64,000 bases of DNA, from positions 12,733-76,732 of the forward strand of contig CAMOSQ010000001.1 of NCBI GenBank assembly GCA_946624985.1, read 5' to 3'. The notes beneath the pieces were generated by a model, which saw only the letters and a list, made by a program, of their open reading frames with translations, had not been told where the DNA came from and ran no database searches. The stretch is from an uncultured Bacillales bacterium (GTDB lineage: Bacteria; Bacillota_I; Bacilli_A; RF39; UBA660). Below, piece after piece: positions 50,145 to 58,425 of this stretch; positions within the stretch are counted from its first letter, which is position 1; every line of letters begins with the position of its first letter. A program made the translations under genes and the position numbers.

Positions 50145-50948
50145 ATGAATTATAAATTTAATAAAAAAGTTTTTTCTATTTTGGGTTCTGGTTTTATTTT
50201 ATTATCGTTACCTGCTTGTGATAAGAGTAAATCTTATTCTAGTTCTAAATCTGATTCTTATGTTGTATTAAATGATTTGGATGCTGTTTCATCTAATACA
50301 ACTAGTACAAGTTCTACGACTAGTACTAATTCTATAATAGTTAATTCTACAACTGGTTCTTCTACATCTACTTCAACTATTTTTGAAACTAGTTATGAAT
50401 TTGATTCTGATACATATACATCTAGTGAATATATAGATGATGATTCTAATAATTCTTTTACATTAACTACTTATGATTGTTCTATATTAGATTATTTTAA
50501 TACATTAGGTAATAATATTAAAAATAATTTTAATTCTGATGATTTTCTTGAAATGGGTAAAAAATATTTTGTTTATTGTGTTGATTTTTTATTTTATGAT
50601 GGTGAAATAAAAGGTGTTAGTTTTAGTGATTTGACTGATAGAGCAAAAGAACAGTTATTGCTTGATATTACTACTATCGATTCTTTAATTTGTTCTAAGT
50701 ATCCTAATTATAAGGAAAATATCAAGGAAGGATTAGGAACTGCTTATAATAAAGCTAGTGAAATTATTAGAGAAGGTAGTAAAGATATTAGAAATTTTTC
50801 TAAAGAGAAATTAGGCGAAGAAAACTATGCAAAGATTGGGGAGTATAAAGATTTGTTTATTGATACTGCTTTTGGTGATTGGGATGATTTTGTTGATATT
50901 TTAGGTAAAGGAAGGCAAAAGGTAAAAGATTGGTATGAAGGACTTTAA
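50145..50948 (+). CDS. Lipoprotein with Ser/Thr-rich linker, unknown function
   Basis: Signal peptide ending in lipobox LSLPAC; poly-S/T tract; C-terminal ~150-aa domain. GGGGGG RBS. Confidence 0.7.
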   Translation: MNYKFNKKVFSILGSGFILLSLPACDKSKSYSSSKSDSYVVLNDLDAVSSNTTSTSSTTSTNSIIVNSTTGSSTSTSTIFETSYEFDSDTYTSSEYIDDDSNNSFTLTTYDCSILDYFNTLGNNIKNNFNSDDFLEMGKKYFVYCVDFLFYDGEIKGVSFSDLTDRAKEQLLLDITTIDSLICSKYPNYKENIKEGLGTAYNKASEIIREGSKDIRNFSKEKLGEENYAKIGEYKDLFIDTAFGDWDDFVDILGKGRQKVKDWYEGL

Positions 50949-50990
50949 TAGTCTTTTTTTATTATGAAAAAAACAGATAATTAATCTGTT
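50938..50990. terminator. Back-to-back terminators between convergent genes
   Basis: aaggact-ttaat-agtcttt plus T-run for the + gene. aacagat-aatta-atctgtt (50972-50990) with a T-run on the minus strand for the esterase operon. Confidence 0.5.
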
Positions 50991-52291
50991 CTTCTTTGAC
51001 TTAATACCCAATCTATAATTGTTGTAAATCCGTTTCCTATATTTGTGTCTTCTAGTACTACGTTTGGCATAAAAGCATGATCCTGTGGAGCAGGGTATTC
51101 TCTTACGTATGCAGTATATCCTGCATTTTTTAATTTTTTTATAAAGTTTGGTATTCCTGTTCCTGGATACTTTTTTCCATTTGCATAGGTGTCAGATGCT
51201 CCATAGAATCCATATGTTGGAACAGTTTTAAATCCTTGTACATTTGTAATTCCTTTTTTTGCGATTAGGACTGCGCTAGAAAAATATGTTGGATTATTAT
51301 TGACTAACGTAGGAATTATTTCTGCTCCTAAGCTATATCCCCAAATACTAATTCTTTTTGTATCTATATTGTTATTTGGGTTTTGGATTTCTTGATTTAT
51401 CATTCCCATTACATCTGATGCACTCCATCCATTACTTGATGCAATTTTTGGGGCATGTGGTATTAATATATAGCAGTTATATTCCACATTTTTATCTTCT
51501 ATTTCGTGTAGGAATCCTCCTCCTCCGTCTGCTTTAAGTGTTGAATATCCTCCACCTGTTCCACCGGTACCATGTAAATATACTATTAATGCGGCTTTGT
51601 TTCCATCTATTCTTTTTGGTACATAAAGATAGTAACTATATCCATTTATATATGATTTTTGAATTATATTTTGATTAGTAAGTGCATTTGGGTTATCAAT
51701 TATTGTTCTTGCGATTGCGCCTCCTCCTGCAGATGCAATTGTATTTGTATATGCTGGTACTCCTGTATCTCCTGTATTTGCGTAGTCTATTTTTTCTTCA
51801 TTTTTATATTCATCTTTAAGATTACAATTGGAATCATATTTATGTTGTTCGCTTAGTAATCCTGGACAAAGAGTAGTAGCTTCGCTATCAATTTGCTCGC
51901 ATTTTTCTGGATGAATTAGACAGTATACGCAATTTTTTAGTTCGCTTTCTGTTCCAACTGATATGTTTATTATAAAGTTTACTATTGATATAATAAAGAA
52001 TATTATTACTGCTGTTATTATGTTTGTTATAAATTTCTTTTTTGCTTTGTCTAGACTATCATTTACATTTCCCGAGATAGTAACTTTTAAGAATGAGATT
52101 AATCCGGAAAATACAAGTAGTAGAGGTACAATAATTCTGATTATTATGTATATTGTTGATACCATTGTCCCAATTACTGTTGGAAATTTTTTGTCTGCTC
52201 CACATACTATATATTCTTTAGCATTTATTATTGTTGGTGTTAGTGGTGTAAGTAAAACGATGATTTTTTTTAGTATTGATTTTTTTTTCAT
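50981..52291 (-). CDS. Membrane-hairpin-anchored extracellular alpha/beta-hydrolase (esterase), paralog A
   Basis: Signal peptide, 2 TM with K-rich loop, Cys-rich linker (CVYCLIHPEKC...C...C). Hydrolase: YLHGTGG, GYSLGA (GxSxG), FYGASD, QDHAF. RBS AGAGGTGA in the 12-nt gap after paralog B. Confidence 0.75.
   Translation of the reverse strand: MKKKSILKKIIVLLTPLTPTIINAKEYIVCGADKKFPTVIGTMVSTIYIIIRIIVPLLLVFSGLISFLKVTISGNVNDSLDKAKKKFITNIITAVIIFFIISIVNFIINISVGTESELKNCVYCLIHPEKCEQIDSEATTLCPGLLSEQHKYDSNCNLKDEYKNEEKIDYANTGDTGVPAYTNTIASAGGGAIARTIIDNPNALTNQNIIQKSYINGYSYYLYVPKRIDGNKAALIVYLHGTGGTGGGYSTLKADGGGGFLHEIEDKNVEYNCYILIPHAPKIASSNGWSASDVMGMINQEIQNPNNNIDTKRISIWGYSLGAEIIPTLVNNNPTYFSSAVLIAKKGITNVQGFKTVPTYGFYGASDTYANGKKYPGTGIPNFIKKLKNAGYTAYVREYPAPQDHAFMPNVVLEDTNIGNGFTTIIDWVLSQRRTD
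51671..52291. repeat. Direct repeat copy 1 (5' third of esterase paralog A)
   Basis: Offset exactly 1293 bp from copy 2. 51803-52244 matches 53096-53537 with no mismatch that I can see; a few substitutions at both ends. Confidence 0.9.
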
Positions 52292-52303
52292 ATTTCACCT
52301 CTT

Positions 52304-53584
52304 TTAGTTACTTCTTCTTTGAGATAGTACCCAGTCCATAATATTTGTAAAACCATTACCTATATCTTGGTCTACCATTAGTTTTTCCATTACATGGTCA
52401 TGGTCTACACCTTGATATGCTTTTATATATGCTTTATATCCTGCATTTTTTAATCTATTTATTAATCCTGGTGTGTTTGTGTTTGCGTAGCCGTCTGCTG
52501 TTCCATAAAATCCGTATGTTGATATTTTATCAAATCCTGTTAATGATACATAGCTTGGGTTTCCACCTCGTGCAAGTATTACTGCACTTGAAAATGTATT
52601 AGGATTGATGTTTACCATTCCAGGCACTGCTTCTGCTCCAGCACTATATCCCCATATACTTATTCTATCTTTATCTATTCCTAGATTTTCTATTTCTCTA
52701 TTCATAATTTTTGTAACAGCACTAGTGTTCCATCCTGACCTATCATGCTTTTGAGGCATTAGTATATAAGCATTAAATTCCATTCCTTTTTCAATGTATT
52801 TTGCGAATCCGAATCCAGTTGCCATTAAATTATATCCATATCCACATTCTCTACCATTACCATGTAAGTATACTATTAGAGCTGGTTTATTTCCATCTAT
52901 TTTTTTTGGTACATATACATAGTAACTGTATCCACTTTCAACATCTGATTTTGTGATTATGTTTTGATTTGTAAGTGCATTTGGATTATCTGTTATTGTT
53001 CTTGCGATTGCGCTTCCTCCTGCAGATGCGATTGTGTTTGTATATGCAGGTACTCCTGTATCTCCAGTATTTGCGTAGTCTATTTTTTCTTCATCTTTAT
53101 ATTCATCTTTAAGATTACAATTGGAATCATATTTATGTTGTTCGCTTAGTAATCCTGGACAAAGAGTAGTAGCTTCGCTATCAATTTGCTCGCATTTTTC
53201 TGGATGAATTAGACAGTATACGCAATTTTTTAGTTCGCTTTCTGTTCCAACTGATATGTTTATTATAAAGTTTACTATTGATATAATAAAGAATATTATT
53301 ACTGCTGTTATTATGTTTGTTATAAATTTCTTTTTTGCTTTGTCTAGACTATCATTTACATTTCCCGAGATAGTAACTTTTAAGAATGAGATTAATCCGG
53401 AAAATACAAGTAGTAGAGGTACAATAATTCTGATTATTATGTATATTGTTGATACCATTGTCCCAATTACTGTTGGAAATTTTTTGTCTGCTCCACATAC
53501 TATATATTCTTTAGCATTTATTATTGTTGGTGTTAGTAGTGTTAGTAAAATAATTAATTTTTTTAGTATTGATTTTTTTTTCAT
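52304..53584 (-). CDS. Membrane-hairpin-anchored extracellular alpha/beta-hydrolase (esterase), paralog B
   Basis: First ~205 aa nearly identical to paralog A. Hydrolase half diverged: YLHGNG, GYSAGA, FYGTADG, VDHDHV. Confidence 0.75.
   Translation of the reverse strand: MKKKSILKKLIILLTLLTPTIINAKEYIVCGADKKFPTVIGTMVSTIYIIIRIIVPLLLVFSGLISFLKVTISGNVNDSLDKAKKKFITNIITAVIIFFIISIVNFIINISVGTESELKNCVYCLIHPEKCEQIDSEATTLCPGLLSEQHKYDSNCNLKDEYKDEEKIDYANTGDTGVPAYTNTIASAGGSAIARTITDNPNALTNQNIITKSDVESGYSYYVYVPKKIDGNKPALIVYLHGNGRECGYGYNLMATGFGFAKYIEKGMEFNAYILMPQKHDRSGWNTSAVTKIMNREIENLGIDKDRISIWGYSAGAEAVPGMVNINPNTFSSAVILARGGNPSYVSLTGFDKISTYGFYGTADGYANTNTPGLINRLKNAGYKAYIKAYQGVDHDHVMEKLMVDQDIGNGFTNIMDWVLSQRRSN
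52964..53584. repeat. Direct repeat copy 2 (5' third of esterase paralog B)
   Basis: See copy 1. Identity stops near codon ~207, and the remaining ~700 bp of each gene are only moderately similar. Confidence 0.9.
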
Positions 53585-53716
53585 AAAACACCTCTTACTG
53601 TAGTAATTTTAACATATTATTGATTATTATTCAATATAATTTATAATACATTTTGTCGATTGAAATATGTTCTTCTTCTTATTTTTATTAAATATTATTT
53701 TTTAGGAGGAAAGGGT

Positions 53717-56329
53717 ATGAATAAAGGTAATGGTCTTAGTTCTAAGGATGTAATTATTAATAGAGATAAGTATGGAGAAAATATTATTTCTGGATCTAGA
53801 AAAGATAGTTTTTTTAAGATGTTTATTGAATCATTTGGTGATCCTATTATTAAAATTTTGTTGGTTGCTTTAGGTATTAAAGTGTTTTTTTTATTTAGAA
53901 GTTTTGATTGGTATGAGACTATTGGTATTTTAATTGCGATCTTAATTGCTTCTTTTATTTCTACAATTTCTGAGTATGGTAGTGAAAGGGCTTTTTTAAA
54001 GTTACAGGAAGAGGCTTCTAGGCTTAAATGTCGTGTTAAAAGAGATGGTGTTATAGGTGTTATTAATGTAGATGATGTTGTTGTTGGTGATATTGTTCTT
54101 TTAGAAACTGGTGATAAGGTTCCTGCTGATGGAATTATTGTTGATGGTGATTTTGCTTTGGATGAATCTTCTATTACTGGTGAGTCTAAAGAGGTTAATA
54201 AGAAATCAGTTATTGATATTAATAATTATAAAGAAGAAAATTTTGTTTATCGTGGTACTGTTGTTTATTCTGGTGTTGGATTAATGTTGGTTACTGCTGT
54301 AGGTAATAATACTTTTTATGGAAAGGTTATTTCTGATTTGCTCGATAATCAGCCTGAAAGTCCTTTAAAATTAAAGTTAAGGGATTTGGCTTGTTCTATT
54401 AGCAAATTGGGATATATTGGTTCTATATTGGTTAGTTTGTCTTATTTGTTTAATGTTATTTTTATTGATAATAATTTTGATTTTAGTTTAATTGTTTCTA
54501 CTGTTTGTAATTTTAGGGAAATGTTTGGACATATATTATATGCACTTACCTTGAGTGTTACTGTTATTGTTGTTGCTGTTCCAGAGGGATTACCTATGAT
54601 GATTACTCTTGTTTTGTCTTCTAATGTTCGTCGTATGATTAAAGATAATGTTATGGTTAGGAAAATGGTTGGTATAGAAACCGCTGGTAGTTTAAATATA
54701 TTATTTACTGATAAGACAGGTACTTTAACTAATGGTGTTTTGGATGTTGTTGGTTTTATGCCTGGATCTTTGAAGGAGTTTTCTTCTTTTTCTTCTTTAG
54801 CTAGATATGACAGTTTATATACAATGGTAATTTTAAATTGTTTTTTTAATAATTCTAGTAGTTTTGTTGATGGACATGCAGTTGGAGGCAATATTACTGA
54901 TAGAGCTATTTTAAATTATGTTGGTTTGTGTTCTATTGACGCTAAAATTGTTTCTAGTGTTCCTTTTGATAGTAACAAAAAGTATTCTAGTTGTTTTATA
55001 GATTATAGTGGTAAAAGAATTAATTTGTTTAAGGGTGCTCCAGAGGTTATTTTAAAAAATTGTAATAAGTTTTTATCTGATAATGGTAGTGTTAAATATT
55101 TTTATGATAAAAAGAGTATTAATAATATTATTGATTTAAAGACTGCTAATGGTGTTAGAGTTTTAGCGCTTGCGTATGGTGAGGCTAATGTGATGTCTGA
55201 TCTTATTTTTATTGGTTTATTGTTTATTAAGGATGAGGTAAGAAAATCGGCTATAGAAGGCATTGATCTTGTTCGTAGAGCTGGTATTCAAACTGTTATG
55301 ATAACTGGTGATAACAAGAATACTGCTGTTTCTATTGCGAGGGAAGTTGGAATTGTATCTAGTTCTAGTGATATTGTTTTAACTAGTGATGAGTTAAATC
55401 TTATGTCGGATGATGAAGTAAAAGGTATTCTTTCAGATTTAAGGGTTGTTTCTAGGTCTTTACCTCAGGATAAGAGTAGGCTTGTTAGATTATCTCAGGA
55501 ACTTGGACTTGTTGTTGGTATGACAGGGGATGGAGTAAATGATGCTCCTGCATTAAAAAAGGCTGATGTTGGTTTTTCTATGGGAAGTGGTACTGAGGTT
55601 GCTCGTGAGGCTAGTGATATTATAATTTTAGATGATAATTTTAAATCTATTTCAAGTGCTATTTTGTATGGAAGAACTATTTTTAAGAGTATAAGAAAAT
55701 TTATTATTTTTCAATTGACTGTTAATTTATGTGCTGTTAGTTTATCGGTTGTTGGTCCTTTAGTTGGAATTCATACTCCTGTAACTGTTATTCAAATGTT
55801 ATGGATTAATATGGTTATGGATACTCTTGCTGGAATTGCTTTTTCTTTTGAGCCACCTCTTTTGGAGTATATGAATGAAAAGCCTAAGAAGCGTGATGAA
55901 TCTATTATCAATTCTTATATGAAAAATGAAATTATTGTTACTGGTATTTATTCTTCTATTTTATGTTTATGGTTTTTAAAATCTGATTTTATTTCTGGTT
56001 TATTTAGAGGTAGCATTAATGATAAATATTTATTAAGTGCATTTTTTGGATTATTTATTTTTATTGGTATTTTTAATAGTTTTAATGCGCGTACAAGTAG
56101 AATTAATATTTTTGCTAATATATTTAAGAATAAGGTGTTTTTGTTTGTAATATTTTTAATTGTTACTGTACAAATTATTCTTATTTATTTTGGTGGGGAA
56201 TTATTTAGAACTATTGGTTTAAGTTTTAAGGAGTTTAATTTTATGTTGTTGCTTTCTTTAACTGTTATTCCATTTGATTGGATTAGAAAGTATTTTATTA
56301 AGTTAAAAAGTGTTGATTTTGGTGTTTAA
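53717..56329 (+). CDS. P-type Ca2+-transporting ATPase (P2 type)
   Basis: ATG 53717 after AGGAGG (track start 53660 is an extension). TGES, VPEGLP (M4), DKTGTLT, TGDN, GDGVNDAPALK. Confidence 0.9.
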   Translation: MNKGNGLSSKDVIINRDKYGENIISGSRKDSFFKMFIESFGDPIIKILLVALGIKVFFLFRSFDWYETIGILIAILIASFISTISEYGSERAFLKLQEEASRLKCRVKRDGVIGVINVDDVVVGDIVLLETGDKVPADGIIVDGDFALDESSITGESKEVNKKSVIDINNYKEENFVYRGTVVYSGVGLMLVTAVGNNTFYGKVISDLLDNQPESPLKLKLRDLACSISKLGYIGSILVSLSYLFNVIFIDNNFDFSLIVSTVCNFREMFGHILYALTLSVTVIVVAVPEGLPMMITLVLSSNVRRMIKDNVMVRKMVGIETAGSLNILFTDKTGTLTNGVLDVVGFMPGSLKEFSSFSSLARYDSLYTMVILNCFFNNSSSFVDGHAVGGNITDRAILNYVGLCSIDAKIVSSVPFDSNKKYSSCFIDYSGKRINLFKGAPEVILKNCNKFLSDNGSVKYFYDKKSINNIIDLKTANGVRVLALAYGEANVMSDLIFIGLLFIKDEVRKSAIEGIDLVRRAGIQTVMITGDNKNTAVSIAREVGIVSSSSDIVLTSDELNLMSDDEVKGILSDLRVVSRSLPQDKSRLVRLSQELGLVVGMTGDGVNDAPALKKADVGFSMGSGTEVAREASDIIILDDNFKSISSAILYGRTIFKSIRKFIIFQLTVNLCAVSLSVVGPLVGIHTPVTVIQMLWINMVMDTLAGIAFSFEPPLLEYMNEKPKKRDESIINSYMKNEIIVTGIYSSILCLWFLKSDFISGLFRGSINDKYLLSAFFGLFIFIGIFNSFNARTSRINIFANIFKNKVFLFVIFLIVTVQIILIYFGGELFRTIGLSFKEFNFMLLLSLTVIPFDWIRKYFIKLKSVDFGV

Positions 56330-56413: not shown

Positions 56414-57118
56414 ATGATTAATTTTATAGTTGTAGATGATAATAAAAAGTTTTTAGATATTATTATGGATGTAATTACTAAGGTAATGATGCATAATAAG
56501 TTTATTTATAAAACTCATTTTTTTGATGAGTATGATTCTGGTTTTTATGATATTATGAATTCATCTTTATCTAATAAAATATATATTCTTGATATTGAAA
56601 CTAAGAATTCTTCTGGTATTGATGTTGCTAGAAAAATTAGAAAACATGATATTGATAGCATTATTATATTTGCGACTGTTCATAATGAGGCTGGATTGGT
56701 TTTACTTAAGGATGATTTGATGTTTTTAACTTTTTTGTGCAAGTTTGATGATTTTGAAAATAAATTGTTTTCTTCTATTAATAAAGCTTTAGAGTATATT
56801 CATCATAGAATTTCTATTGTTTTTGATGATAGAGGTACTATTTATACGATACCTTATAATGATATTTTGTATGTTACAAAGGATTCTAGTGATAGGAAGT
56901 CTATTATTGTAACTGTTAATAAGAAGTATAGAGTTGGATTATCTTTAAGAGAAATTGTTAAGTTGTGTGAAAACAGGCTTATTCAAACTCATAGAAGTTG
57001 TTTTGTGAATATGGATAGGGTAAGGGTTGTTAGGAAACATGATGGTATTATTGAATTTGATAATGGTGAAAGCATAGATTTATTATCGAATATGTATAAG
57101 AAGGGAATTGGTGTTTGA
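56414..57118 (+). CDS. agrA: LytTR-family response regulator (AgrA-like)
   Basis: Receiver (VVDDN..., YILDIE phospho-Asp) plus C-terminal LytTR domain (ILYVTKDS..., IQTHRSCFVNMDRV). Confidence 0.8.
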   Translation: MINFIVVDDNKKFLDIIMDVITKVMMHNKFIYKTHFFDEYDSGFYDIMNSSLSNKIYILDIETKNSSGIDVARKIRKHDIDSIIIFATVHNEAGLVLLKDDLMFLTFLCKFDDFENKLFSSINKALEYIHHRISIVFDDRGTIYTIPYNDILYVTKDSSDRKSIIVTVNKKYRVGLSLREIVKLCENRLIQTHRSCFVNMDRVRVVRKHDGIIEFDNGESIDLLSNMYKKGIGV

Positions 57119-58425
57119 TGGAGAGATATATTGGTTTGTTTATTGGCGGTATAATTCTTTTTTATTCAGAAATATATGTTTGGGCTAAATTTTATGATGA
57201 AAAGATTAATTATAAAAATCCTTGGTTTTATGTTTCAATATTTTTTCTTACCTTGTTATCTATTTTTAATCATATTTTTGTTAATGCATTTATTAAGGTT
57301 TTGTTTATATCTGTTTTAATATTTTTTTCAAATAGATTGATTTTTCATAGATCTGTTAGCGAAACTATAATTATAGATATATATGGTCAGCTTCTTGTTG
57401 CTTTTTCTGATGTTATTTTTACTTTAGGGTGGATTCTAATATATGGAAAAAATGCTGCATTTGTTAGAGATAATTTGTTTGATACATTTCTTGTTAATGC
57501 TTGTATTGCGCTAATTTATGTTTTTTTATGTAGTATTCCTTTTGTAAAAAAATTTTATTTAAAACTTGTTAAATTTACTAGTAAGTTTAAGATTAAAAAT
57601 TTAATATTATGGTTTTTATTGGCAATTTTAAGTATGAATTTTTTGGTAGCCATTATTTTTTATAGATTGAATTCTATTTATGTTATTATTATTGATTCAC
57701 TTATGTTGTTGGTTTATTCTTTTATTGTATTTAAAGCGATGAATGAAAAAAATAATAATATTATGATTAAGGCTGAGAATGCTTTATTAATTCAAAATCT
57801 TAATCAGTATGAGGATATGGTTGATCGTCAGAGAGTAGATAATCATGAAAATAAGAATCAATTATTAATTATTAAGAATATGATTAAGAAAAAGGATAAG
57901 GACGTTATTAAGTACATTGATACTATTGTTAAAGATGAAAAGGAGGATGATGAGGCTTTATATACTAAAGTTAAGAATATTCCATCTGGTGGATTACAAG
58001 GAATTATTTATCAAAAGATGCTTACAATGAAAGATAAAAAAATATTGTTTAGTTTAGATGTTGGATTTGAAGTACGTAAAATTAATTTGGATAATCTTAC
58101 TATGGATGATAATTATAAATTATGTAAAATGGTTGGTGTTTTACTTGATAACGCGATTGAGGAAAGTTTAAAGATTGATGATAAGCGTATTATGATTTGT
58201 TTATATGTTGATGATGATAAGTTAGTTATTGATATTTCTAATAAGTTTAGCGGAAAAATAGATCTTGAAAAAATTGATGAAGCAGGATATACAACTAAGG
58301 GTGATGGACATGGATATGGTTTATCGTTAGTTAAAAAGATTGTTTCATCATCTACTTTATTTGAAAATGAGAGAAAGATTAATAACGACGTTTTTAAGCA
58401 AATTGTTAAAGTAAGGGTTAAATAA
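57115..58425 (+). CDS. agrC: AgrC-like (HPK10) sensor histidine kinase
   Basis: About 6 N-terminal TM. H-box RQRVDNHENKNQL, N-box LLDNAIEE, G-box GDGHGYGL. ATGA overlap with the regulator. Confidence 0.8.
   Translation: MMERYIGLFIGGIILFYSEIYVWAKFYDEKINYKNPWFYVSIFFLTLLSIFNHIFVNAFIKVLFISVLIFFSNRLIFHRSVSETIIIDIYGQLLVAFSDVIFTLGWILIYGKNAAFVRDNLFDTFLVNACIALIYVFLCSIPFVKKFYLKLVKFTSKFKIKNLILWFLLAILSMNFLVAIIFYRLNSIYVIIIDSLMLLVYSFIVFKAMNEKNNNIMIKAENALLIQNLNQYEDMVDRQRVDNHENKNQLLIIKNMIKKKDKDVIKYIDTIVKDEKEDDEALYTKVKNIPSGGLQGIIYQKMLTMKDKKILFSLDVGFEVRKINLDNLTMDDNYKLCKMVGVLLDNAIEESLKIDDKRIMICLYVDDDKLVIDISNKFSGKIDLEKIDEAGYTTKGDGHGYGLSLVKKIVSSSTLFENERKINNDVFKQIVKVRVK

Follow-up and report, generated by a model that had tools for sequence, protein, structure and literature searches.

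Two adjacent membrane-anchored esterase genes in an uncultured Bacillales bacterium: probable gene conversion of a pilin-like anchor and exchange of enzyme heads

Background

Type IV secretion systems (T4SSs) of Patescibacteria possess arrays of VirB2-like pilins (PF18895); in Southlakia epibionticum, the array comprises six pilins and is essential (PMC12102498, PMC12857230). According to reviews, Gram-positive T4SSs lack VirB2 pilins, and Patescibacteria are unique among monoderms in possibly having T4SS pili (PMC12102498, PMC12857230). Here we describe two adjacent genes, designated A and B, from an uncultured Bacillales bacterium (family UBA660; assembly GCA_946624985.1, contig CAMOSQ010000001.1, positions 12,733 to 76,732). 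This whole stretch of 64,000 nucleotides is referred to as the window. Both genes encode a predicted signal peptide, a two-helix hairpin resembling T4SS pilins (the anchor) and a putative esterase domain (the head).

The anchors share with the patescibacterial pilins a signal peptide followed by a two-helix hairpin and, in most homologs, a match to the same Pfam model, and in both cases several divergent paralogs per genome lie near monoderm-type VirB4, VirB6 and VirD4. Hosts of both have small genomes and a chromosomal T4SS without evident relaxase. On the other hand, the host studied here belongs to a family of the class Bacilli, not to the candidate phyla radiation (CPR). Its genes add an esterase of about 230 aa after the hairpin and are located about 50 kb from the T4SS locus. 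Moreover, CPR arrays average 25% identity, whereas the two anchors in the window are 98-100% identical.

Membrane-tethered envelope enzymes are also known from Gram-positive T4SSs as VirB1-type wall hydrolases, namely PrgK (pCF10), TraG (pIP501) and CwlT (ICEBs1). Relatives of our anchor likewise carry NlpC/P60, CHAP and VanY domains. In contrast, PrgK, TraG and CwlT have a single N-terminal transmembrane (TM) helix and are glycosidases or peptidases, not alpha/beta-hydrolase esterases, and the T4SS locus of the window genome already encodes a distinct SpoIID-NlpC/P60 protein.

As regards the heads, EstA (TM0033; 3doh), the C-terminal domain of LC-Est1 (3wyd) and, more distantly, polyhydroxybutyrate (PHB) depolymerases and CE1 enzymes share their alpha/beta-hydrolase fold, and nucleophile elbow, acid and histidine can be aligned. 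Identity to EstA and LC-Est1 is 22-24%, and the N-terminal partner in EstA is an immunoglobulin-like domain, whereas it is a pilin-like hairpin in the window proteins.

Finally, segmental gene conversion is known from Neisseria pilE/pilS and from surface-antigen families of Mycoplasma, and swapping of C-terminal parts from polymorphic toxins. Conversion between linked paralogs, division into constant and variable modules and allelic replacement between close strains are features shared with our locus. Unlike in pilE/pilS and the toxins, conversion homogenises the constant part here rather than diversifying the variable one, silent cassettes and immunity genes are missing, and the variable part is an enzyme with conserved active site.

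Results

Anchors of A and B are identical over 441 nucleotides

Related loci were found via look-ups of exact proteins, yielding eight syntenic metagenomic loci (distinguished below by L numbers). Coordinates of all features are given in Table 1.

Genes A and B are direct repeats with an offset of 1293 nt, and their codons 17-163 (441 nt) are 100% identical. A preliminary description of the window had reported a repeat of this offset with a mismatch-free stretch, and codon-by-codon comparison confirmed it. Codons 10-16 contain 6 nucleotide differences. Further downstream, identity decreases to 95, 90, 82 and 85% in successive 20-codon windows of codons 164-240 and to 43-75% past codon 240; indels are absent until codon ~215. 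The longest run of identity measures 442 nt, compared to a maximum of 71 nt in 20000 shuffles of difference positions. The preliminary description had also placed a sharp boundary near codon 207. Its position is close to the module junction seen across the family (residues 200-205, after an invariant DNPN motif), but between A and B identity declines in steps.

Probable gene conversion between anchors

When rates were compared across the boundary, the number of synonymous substitutions per site (dS) between A and B was 0 in the N-terminal core (N-core) and 0.80 in the head. No synonymous change is found at 97.3 synonymous sites of the core, the probability of which is P<=4e-22 at the rate of the L039 sister pair.

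The anchor might simply be under stronger purifying selection after one old duplication, with no conversion at all. Real constraint does act on it, since the ratio of nonsynonymous to synonymous substitutions (dN/dS) is 0.10 in the N-core of the L039 pair, with dS of 0.56. Constraint nevertheless leaves synonymous change, and none is present in the core of the window pair. Furthermore, anchors group by genome. The four anchors of the window and L039 constitute one clade (100/100) and anchors of the L037 lineage another, and the approximately unbiased (AU) test rejects the paralog tree, i.e. a B-type clade, for the N-terminal module (N-module; p=4.6e-8). The N-core of window A is also nearer to the B ortholog of L039 (92.9% identity) than to the A ortholog (87.2%). 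Purifying selection alone was rejected on account of synonymous sites, AU test and ortholog identities, and we find it hardly credible.

Identical N-termini would also result from a very recent duplication, followed by rapid divergence of heads under positive selection. The dN/dS of 0.5-0.6 between paralogous heads is in line with this scenario. However, the heads are old. Nucleotide identity to L039 orthologs amounts to 92.6% for the B head and 91.0% for the A head, and 67-72% to L037 orthologs, while A and B heads are only 60-64% identical in every genome. The head tree resolves A-type and B-type clades with 98-100% support, and dS between paralogous heads, about 0.8, is near saturation. Head identities and head tree led us to reject recent duplication, to which we give practically no credit.

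For head data, in turn, a lineage clade is rejected (AU test, p=8.4e-9). In the N-core, dN is 0.06 and 0.21 within genomes and ~0.30 between orthologs. A table of informative sites reveals that window A has B-type bases over nt 94-300 and A-type bases at 411, 413, 436 and 448. Because synonymous sites, trees, polarity and site table all point in this direction, and constraint alone or recent duplication fail to explain them, the anchors appear to have been homogenised by repeated, patchy and bidirectional gene conversion. The recent conversion suggested in the preliminary description is hence supported by the dS contrast, by outgroup polarity and by incongruent trees.

The perfection of the repeat raises the question of assembly quality. 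L048, a 213-kb scaffold, matches the window over 7.3 kb with 99.86% identity, and the A genes of both are identical. All 10 differences fall into B nt 301-448, where window B has the bases of A; at most of these sites L048 B agrees with other B orthologs. Since the difference is confined to 148 nt, the last step to perfect identity was either a very recent conversion or collapse of the consensus. In the latter case the assembler would have merged two similar copies and the 441-nt identity would be false. The genome is indeed a 17-contig, 77%-complete draft, and the exact window B protein is recorded in no other assembly, whereas the A protein is present on several contigs. Still, identity between A and B of L048 is complete over nt 48-300 and amounts to 97.7% across the core, independent assemblies show the mosaic as well as B-to-A conversion with respect to L039, and anchor/head incongruence is family-wide. 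The 148-nt sub-tract is the most that could be affected. We consider an artefact unlikely.

Table 1. Features of the esterase gene pair. Coordinates refer to the window; residue numbers of domains to the protein indicated
Feature	Coordinates	Strand	Basis or remark
Gene B, 426 aa, pilin-like anchor and B-type esterase head	52304..53584	-	ORF, Pfam matches, AF2 model, Foldseek
Gene A, 436 aa, same anchor and A-type esterase head (GYSLGA, FYGASD, DH)	50981..52291	-	
Perfect-identity tract, copy 1, B codons 17-163	53096..53536	-	codon-by-codon comparison
Perfect-identity tract, copy 2, A codons 17-163	51803..52243	-	codon-by-codon comparison
B nt 301-448, A-type bases in window only, not in L048 or other B orthologs	53137..53284	-	sister-assembly comparison
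B signal peptide, residues 1-24 (MKKKSILKK..., INA/KE cleavage-type site)	53513..53584	-	hydropathy, charge, model helix 2-22
B two-helix hairpin, residues 39-113: TM1, Lys-rich loop, TM2; PF18895-like	53246..53470	-	
B Cys-rich linker, residues 114-165	53090..53245	-	
B low-confidence tether, residues 166-205, ending in invariant DNPN; family-wide recombination junction	52970..53089	-	
B alpha/beta-hydrolase head, residues 206-426: HG 241-242, G312-Y-S314-A-G316-A317, D364, H395	52307..52969	-	
A alpha/beta-hydrolase head, residues 206-436	50984..51676	-	nt identity 91% to L039 ortholog, ~63% to B
Promoter-like site of two-gene operon: TTGAAT, 17 nt, TG-n-TAAAAT extended -10	53606..53634	-	
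Gene B ribosome-binding site AAGAGGTG	53589..53596	-	taken from sequence
B-A spacer, 12 nt, containing gene A ribosome-binding site AAGAGGTGA	52292..52303	-	ribosome-binding site at 52303-52295
Weak terminator-like hairpin ACAGAT/ATCTGT, then seven T, overlapping gene A stop codon	50966..50989	-	by eye

Architecture and orientation of the proteins

Residues are numbered according to the gene B protein. The signal peptide contains five Lys residues, a hydrophobic core and the cleavage-type site. It is followed by hydrophobic helices 39-68 and 90-113 (hydropathy), connected by a loop of net charge +3. In the AlphaFold2 (AF2) model, helices 38-72 and 78-113 form a hairpin, and the same helices are found in a separate model of the N-module. 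Next come a helical Cys-rich region and a tether, residues 167-194 of which are disordered (predicted local distance difference test, pLDDT, <50). Six cysteines (C30, C121, C124, C131, C142 and C156) are invariant in 27 full-length homologs. The 52 residues behind the hairpin have a net charge of -7; the basic loop and acidic linker thus place the C-terminal part outside the cell. The linker itself is predicted to face outward and is probably braced by disulfides. Hydropathy, charge and model agree with the domain order read at first from the sequence (signal peptide, two TM helices with Lys-rich loop, Cys-rich linker, alpha/beta-hydrolase), and the external location proposed there for both heads fits the charge distribution.

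Heads are predicted serine esterases

The B head is modelled with pLDDT of 88-98 over residues 210-420. Its best Foldseek match is Thermotoga maritima EstA (3doh; E 9e-12, probability 1.0), accompanied by 4q82 and 3wyd. Sequence profiles match 3doh (E 1e-19), LC-Est1C (E 1e-14) and 4q82 (E 3e-10), and nucleophile elbow and acid are aligned to GLSMGG and DD of 3doh. The HG, GYSLGA/GYSAGA, FYGxxD and DH motifs listed in the preliminary description are all present, and H241, G244, G312, S314, G316, A317, D364 and H395 are invariant in the 27 homologs. This set includes the residues of the catalytic triad (S314, D364, H395), the integrity of which had been named as a point to check. It is thus reasonable to regard the head as a real, unclassified serine carboxylesterase, with a Ser-Asp-His triad predicted to be intact. 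Between orthologs, head dN/dS is 0.09-0.13, and such purifying selection on each head type argues that both are working enzymes.

In another genome of the same family, two ORFs of 414-422 aa (G013:C4:137442-137903 and G013:C2:135251-135721) match only the head (residues 212-377, 33-34% identity) and lack any pilin-like module; they could have served as head donors or could be relatives that stand alone.

Heads are exchanged between nearly identical strains

Apart from an agr segment, loci L044 and L047 match at 99.5-100% identity for over 10 kb, a range that takes in the N-module and the final ~56 nt of the esterase gene. Over nt 577-1195 of the gene, DNA identity is merely ~55%; the two heads are 33% identical at protein level and belong to different clades. 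The view of the preliminary description that a constant anchor is joined to a variable head finds support here. Other pairs in the family combine anchors of 98-99% identity with heads of 39-43%, and the converse also occurs (heads 67-76%, anchors 42-54%). Breakpoints cluster just past the invariant DNPN (B ~200-205) and just ahead of a conserved DWVLxQRR tail. Given near-identical flanks and clustered breakpoints, heads are cassettes, exchanged through homologous recombination within conserved arms. That loci contain one or two copies would be explained by unequal crossing-over of the repeated anchors.

The combination of a constant N-terminus and a variable enzyme at the C-terminus is reminiscent of polymorphic-effector systems. 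Heads might then be antibacterial lipases or esterases aimed at neighbours and diversified by an arms race, as in contact-dependent inhibition (CDI), Rhs proteins and Tle effectors of type VI secretion systems (T6SS). Replacement of heads between near-identical strains, the existence of a T4SS and the phospholipase/carboxylesterase-type fold (4q82) are compatible with this idea. On the contrary, neither a downstream gene on the same strand nor a cognate immunity gene was found at eight syntenic loci, and the genome is devoid of orphan head cassettes and extra head copies; their absence argues against a toxin system. The sole neighbour is a convergent lipoprotein gene, which was rejected as an immunity gene since its presence does not follow head type. 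In addition, the proteins are membrane-anchored with Sec signals, and each head type is maintained by purifying selection. Altogether, an effector role is improbable.

Relatives of the anchor lie in a T4SS locus

The hairpin fits the plan of the T4SS_pilin family (PF18895), having a cleavable signal peptide, two hydrophobic helices and a short basic loop. This family is matched by 24 of 27 full-length homologs at E<=0.01 (best E 1.4e-7), and relatives bearing other heads score 28-30 bits.

Four further copies of the module are encoded in the same genome (G000:C1:115384-130252), in proteins of 123 aa (bare and pilin-like; PF18895, 22 bits), 232 aa, 495 aa (module at C-terminus) and 384 aa. The last one is 49% identical to B over its first ~200 residues, Cys linker included, and has a Peptidase_C39_2-like head. 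In between these copies lie genes of TrbL/VirB6-like, VirB4-like, VirD4-like and SpoIID-NlpC/P60 type, and Tad-type genes for a pilus (CpaB-like, T2SSE ATPase, TadB/C-like, ParA-like) come ahead of them. The whole block of Tad-type genes followed by monoderm-type T4SS (G000:C1:106146-133289) is situated on the same contig, ~30-57 kb past the right end of the window; no relaxase was noticed in it.

A VirB4 ortholog is present in 22 of 24 family genomes (69-93% identity), with pilin-like matches 4-10 kb away, and short module-only proteins adjoin VirB4 across the family. As VirB4 is retained and its identity tracks kinship, the T4SS is ancestral and chromosomal in this family. The genome also encodes Mur ligases and four penicillin-binding proteins, so the organism is walled.

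When the N-module alone was used as query, 2170 representative clusters were retrieved at E<=1e-3. Among the best 146 of them, 68 match PF18895, and the recognised heads are NlpC/P60 (8), GDSL/SGNH esterases (7), C39-like (5), VanY (4), LRAT/NlpC-like (3), M15 (1) and CHAP (1). Since these are mostly cell-wall enzymes, the anchor is a carrier for envelope-active enzymes. We found no description of a pilin hairpin in such a role in the literature searched; one paper that mentions PF18895 covers small pilins alone.

Transcription signals and genomic context

The preliminary description had reported two adjoining minus-strand genes, 12 nt apart, each preceded by its own ribosome-binding site; the ORFs and AAGAGGTGA were found as it had stated. 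The promoter-like motif of gene B reads TTGAAT-17-TGTTAAAAT. All eight syntenic loci have kept the block AATAATATGTTAAAATTACTACAGTAAGAGGTG upstream of their first esterase gene. A scan of the locus detected no terminator between B and A. One promoter, separate ribosome-binding sites and lack of such a terminator lead us to read the pair as a single operon, B then A. The hairpin at the gene A stop was missed by the scan because its stem has too few G-C pairs. Control by quorum sensing, considered because some loci have a LytTR regulator in divergent orientation to the operon, was dropped. The only conserved element upstream is the extended -10 promoter, and LytTR-type direct repeats, looked for upstream of the operon across loci, were not seen.

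The promoter and leader around AATAATATGTTAAAATTACTACAGTAAGAGGTG (window 53585-53634; L037, L039, L043-L047) are near-invariant, while coding identity there is 50-70%.

In all eight loci, the esterase slot is bordered on one side by an HTH_28 gene and an acidic-protein operon and on the other by a P-type ATPase, an agr locus or both. Such synteny led to rejection of a mobile island. Two esterase genes occur in the window, L039, L037/L038 and L048, and one gene in L043-L047. Full-length relatives were not found in GTDB species genomes other than that of the window, and a scan of JGI metagenomes retrieved 3 fragments. The samples of relatives are presumably rumen metagenomes, as we read their labels (SHIW14, STEW19, WILK20).

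Several neighbours vary. The 267-aa lipobox protein next to the slot (window 50145-50948, plus strand) occurs in four loci; three others lack it, and one has a DUF3419-like gene in its place. The P-type ATPase (53660-56329, plus strand) is present in some syntenic loci and absent in others. The agr segment excepted above from the comparison of L044 and L047 covers ~400 nt of the kinase/regulator (HK-LytTR) operon (L044:1994-2394) at 60-70% identity and resembles polymorphism of agr specificity groups; the corresponding kinase gene in the window is at 57115-58425.

Between 50000 and 54000, the esterase genes are the only sizeable minus-strand genes of a ~45-kb co-oriented, strongly GC-skewed stretch. 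GC skew, strongly positive around them, falls from ~0.4 to 0.03-0.13, and they are probably transcribed opposite to the direction of replication. Plus-strand antisense ORFs of 61-115 aa occur twofold (51963-52307 and 53256-53603; 51659-51856 and 52964-53149), their duplication being due to their location within the repeated anchor module; in all likelihood they are spurious.

Discussion

The whole set of observations is probably best explained by an operon of exported, pilin-anchored esterases whose anchors are homogenised by conversion and whose heads are exchangeable. Each product would be exported by Sec through its signal peptide, which is then cleaved, and retained in the membrane through a two-helix hairpin of T4SS_pilin (VirB2-like) type with the Lys-rich loop in the cytoplasm. 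The six-Cys linker, the flexible tether and the Ser-Asp-His esterase head would be exposed outside. A- and B-type heads would stem from an old duplication, earlier than the divergence of at least three lineages, and both types would since have been kept by purifying selection. Conversion would homogenise the anchor module between copies, giving heads and anchors separate histories across the family, and recombination at the DNPN and DWVLxQRR junctions would replace heads between near-identical strains, with copy number varying from one to two. We suppose that anchors have to be alike to engage a shared partner or to assemble together. The partner would most likely be the ancestral chromosomal T4SS of the family with its arrays of small pilin-like proteins. 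The most likely activity of the heads would be deacylation at ester bonds of a polymer in the cell envelope, the bacterium's own or a neighbour's; this substrate is suggested by NlpC/P60, VanY, CHAP, C39-like and SGNH domains that ride the same anchor in relatives.

Several results weigh against this explanation. As described above, the 148-nt sub-tract may be the latest A-to-B conversion or a consensus collapse. No named esterase family of Pfam or NCBIfam is above its curated cut-off for either head (Peptidase_S9 20.8 bits against 22.6; esterase_phb 29.8 against 107.9). Weak matches to BD-FAE, acetyl-xylan, feruloyl and PHB-depolymerase-type esterases are equally compatible with a dietary substrate, i.e. 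acetyl or feruloyl esters of plant polymers. De-esterification of dietary polymers is therefore a serious alternative role. As to the anchor, A and B score 19.5 and 19.1 bits with PF18895, below the cut-off of 26.6. The separate N-module model (pLDDT 71) has no PDB match with E<5 in a fold search, and a profile of 146 module-bearing proteins has no meaningful match, and no solved pilin, among PDB sequences. Both esterases lie outside the size range of small pilins (roughly 70-130 aa mature) and, to our knowledge, far exceed the size of any known VirB2 pilin. The operon is ~50-60 kb from the T4SS locus, and VirB4/VirB6 or other T4SS genes are not beside it, T4SS linkage being restricted to paralogs. 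With no match to a solved pilin, the pilin connection rests on hidden Markov model (HMM) matches and genomic context. The VirB2/TrbC-like topology pointed out in the preliminary description thus has support at the level of the family, most homologs matching PF18895 and paralogs residing in the T4SS locus, whereas A and B score below the cut-off and the fold search retrieved no solved pilin.

A generic two-helix anchor could merely resemble T4SS pilins. The proteins would then be ordinary tethered exo-esterases for nutrition, de-esterifying plant or host glycans in gut or rumen and unconnected with any secretion machine. Distance from T4SS genes, an own conserved sigma-70-type promoter, the kind of weak esterase matches and the failure to match solved pilins all agree with this. 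Against it stand the close relationship of the module, Cys linker included, to a gene within the T4SS locus, the PF18895 matches of most members, the module-only proteins beside VirB4 family-wide, and the fact that other heads of the module are mostly cell-wall and not glycan-foraging enzymes. We consider a generic anchor possible, if doubtful.

A bolder version of the pilin-anchored explanation assumes that the walled, small-genome Bacilli of this family have kept, as Patescibacteria have, an ancestral chromosomal T4SS, that it builds a VirB2-type filament or contact structure whose pilin-hairpin subunits carry interchangeable envelope enzymes, and that strains swap heads to suit the envelope chemistry of partners or prey on which they depend. 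Esterases A and B and the C39-like peptidase (elsewhere VanY, CHAP, NlpC/P60 and SGNH enzymes) would co-assemble via conversion-matched anchors. We regard this version as distinctly unlikely.

Taken together with the T4SS locus of its genome, the esterase pair indicates that a reduced-genome family of Bacilli, too, retains a vertically inherited T4SS with pilin-like arrays, and that the pilin hairpin serves there as enzyme carrier, an architecture that is a novel combination of known parts. The locus also represents a clean natural case of domain-resolved evolution, with homogenised anchors and head cassettes exchanged between strains whose flanks are 99.5-100% identical. Should cell envelopes be the target of the heads, this could explain how small dependent bacteria interact with their neighbours; should the heads act on dietary esters, the anchors would represent a new display scaffold for gut enzymes.

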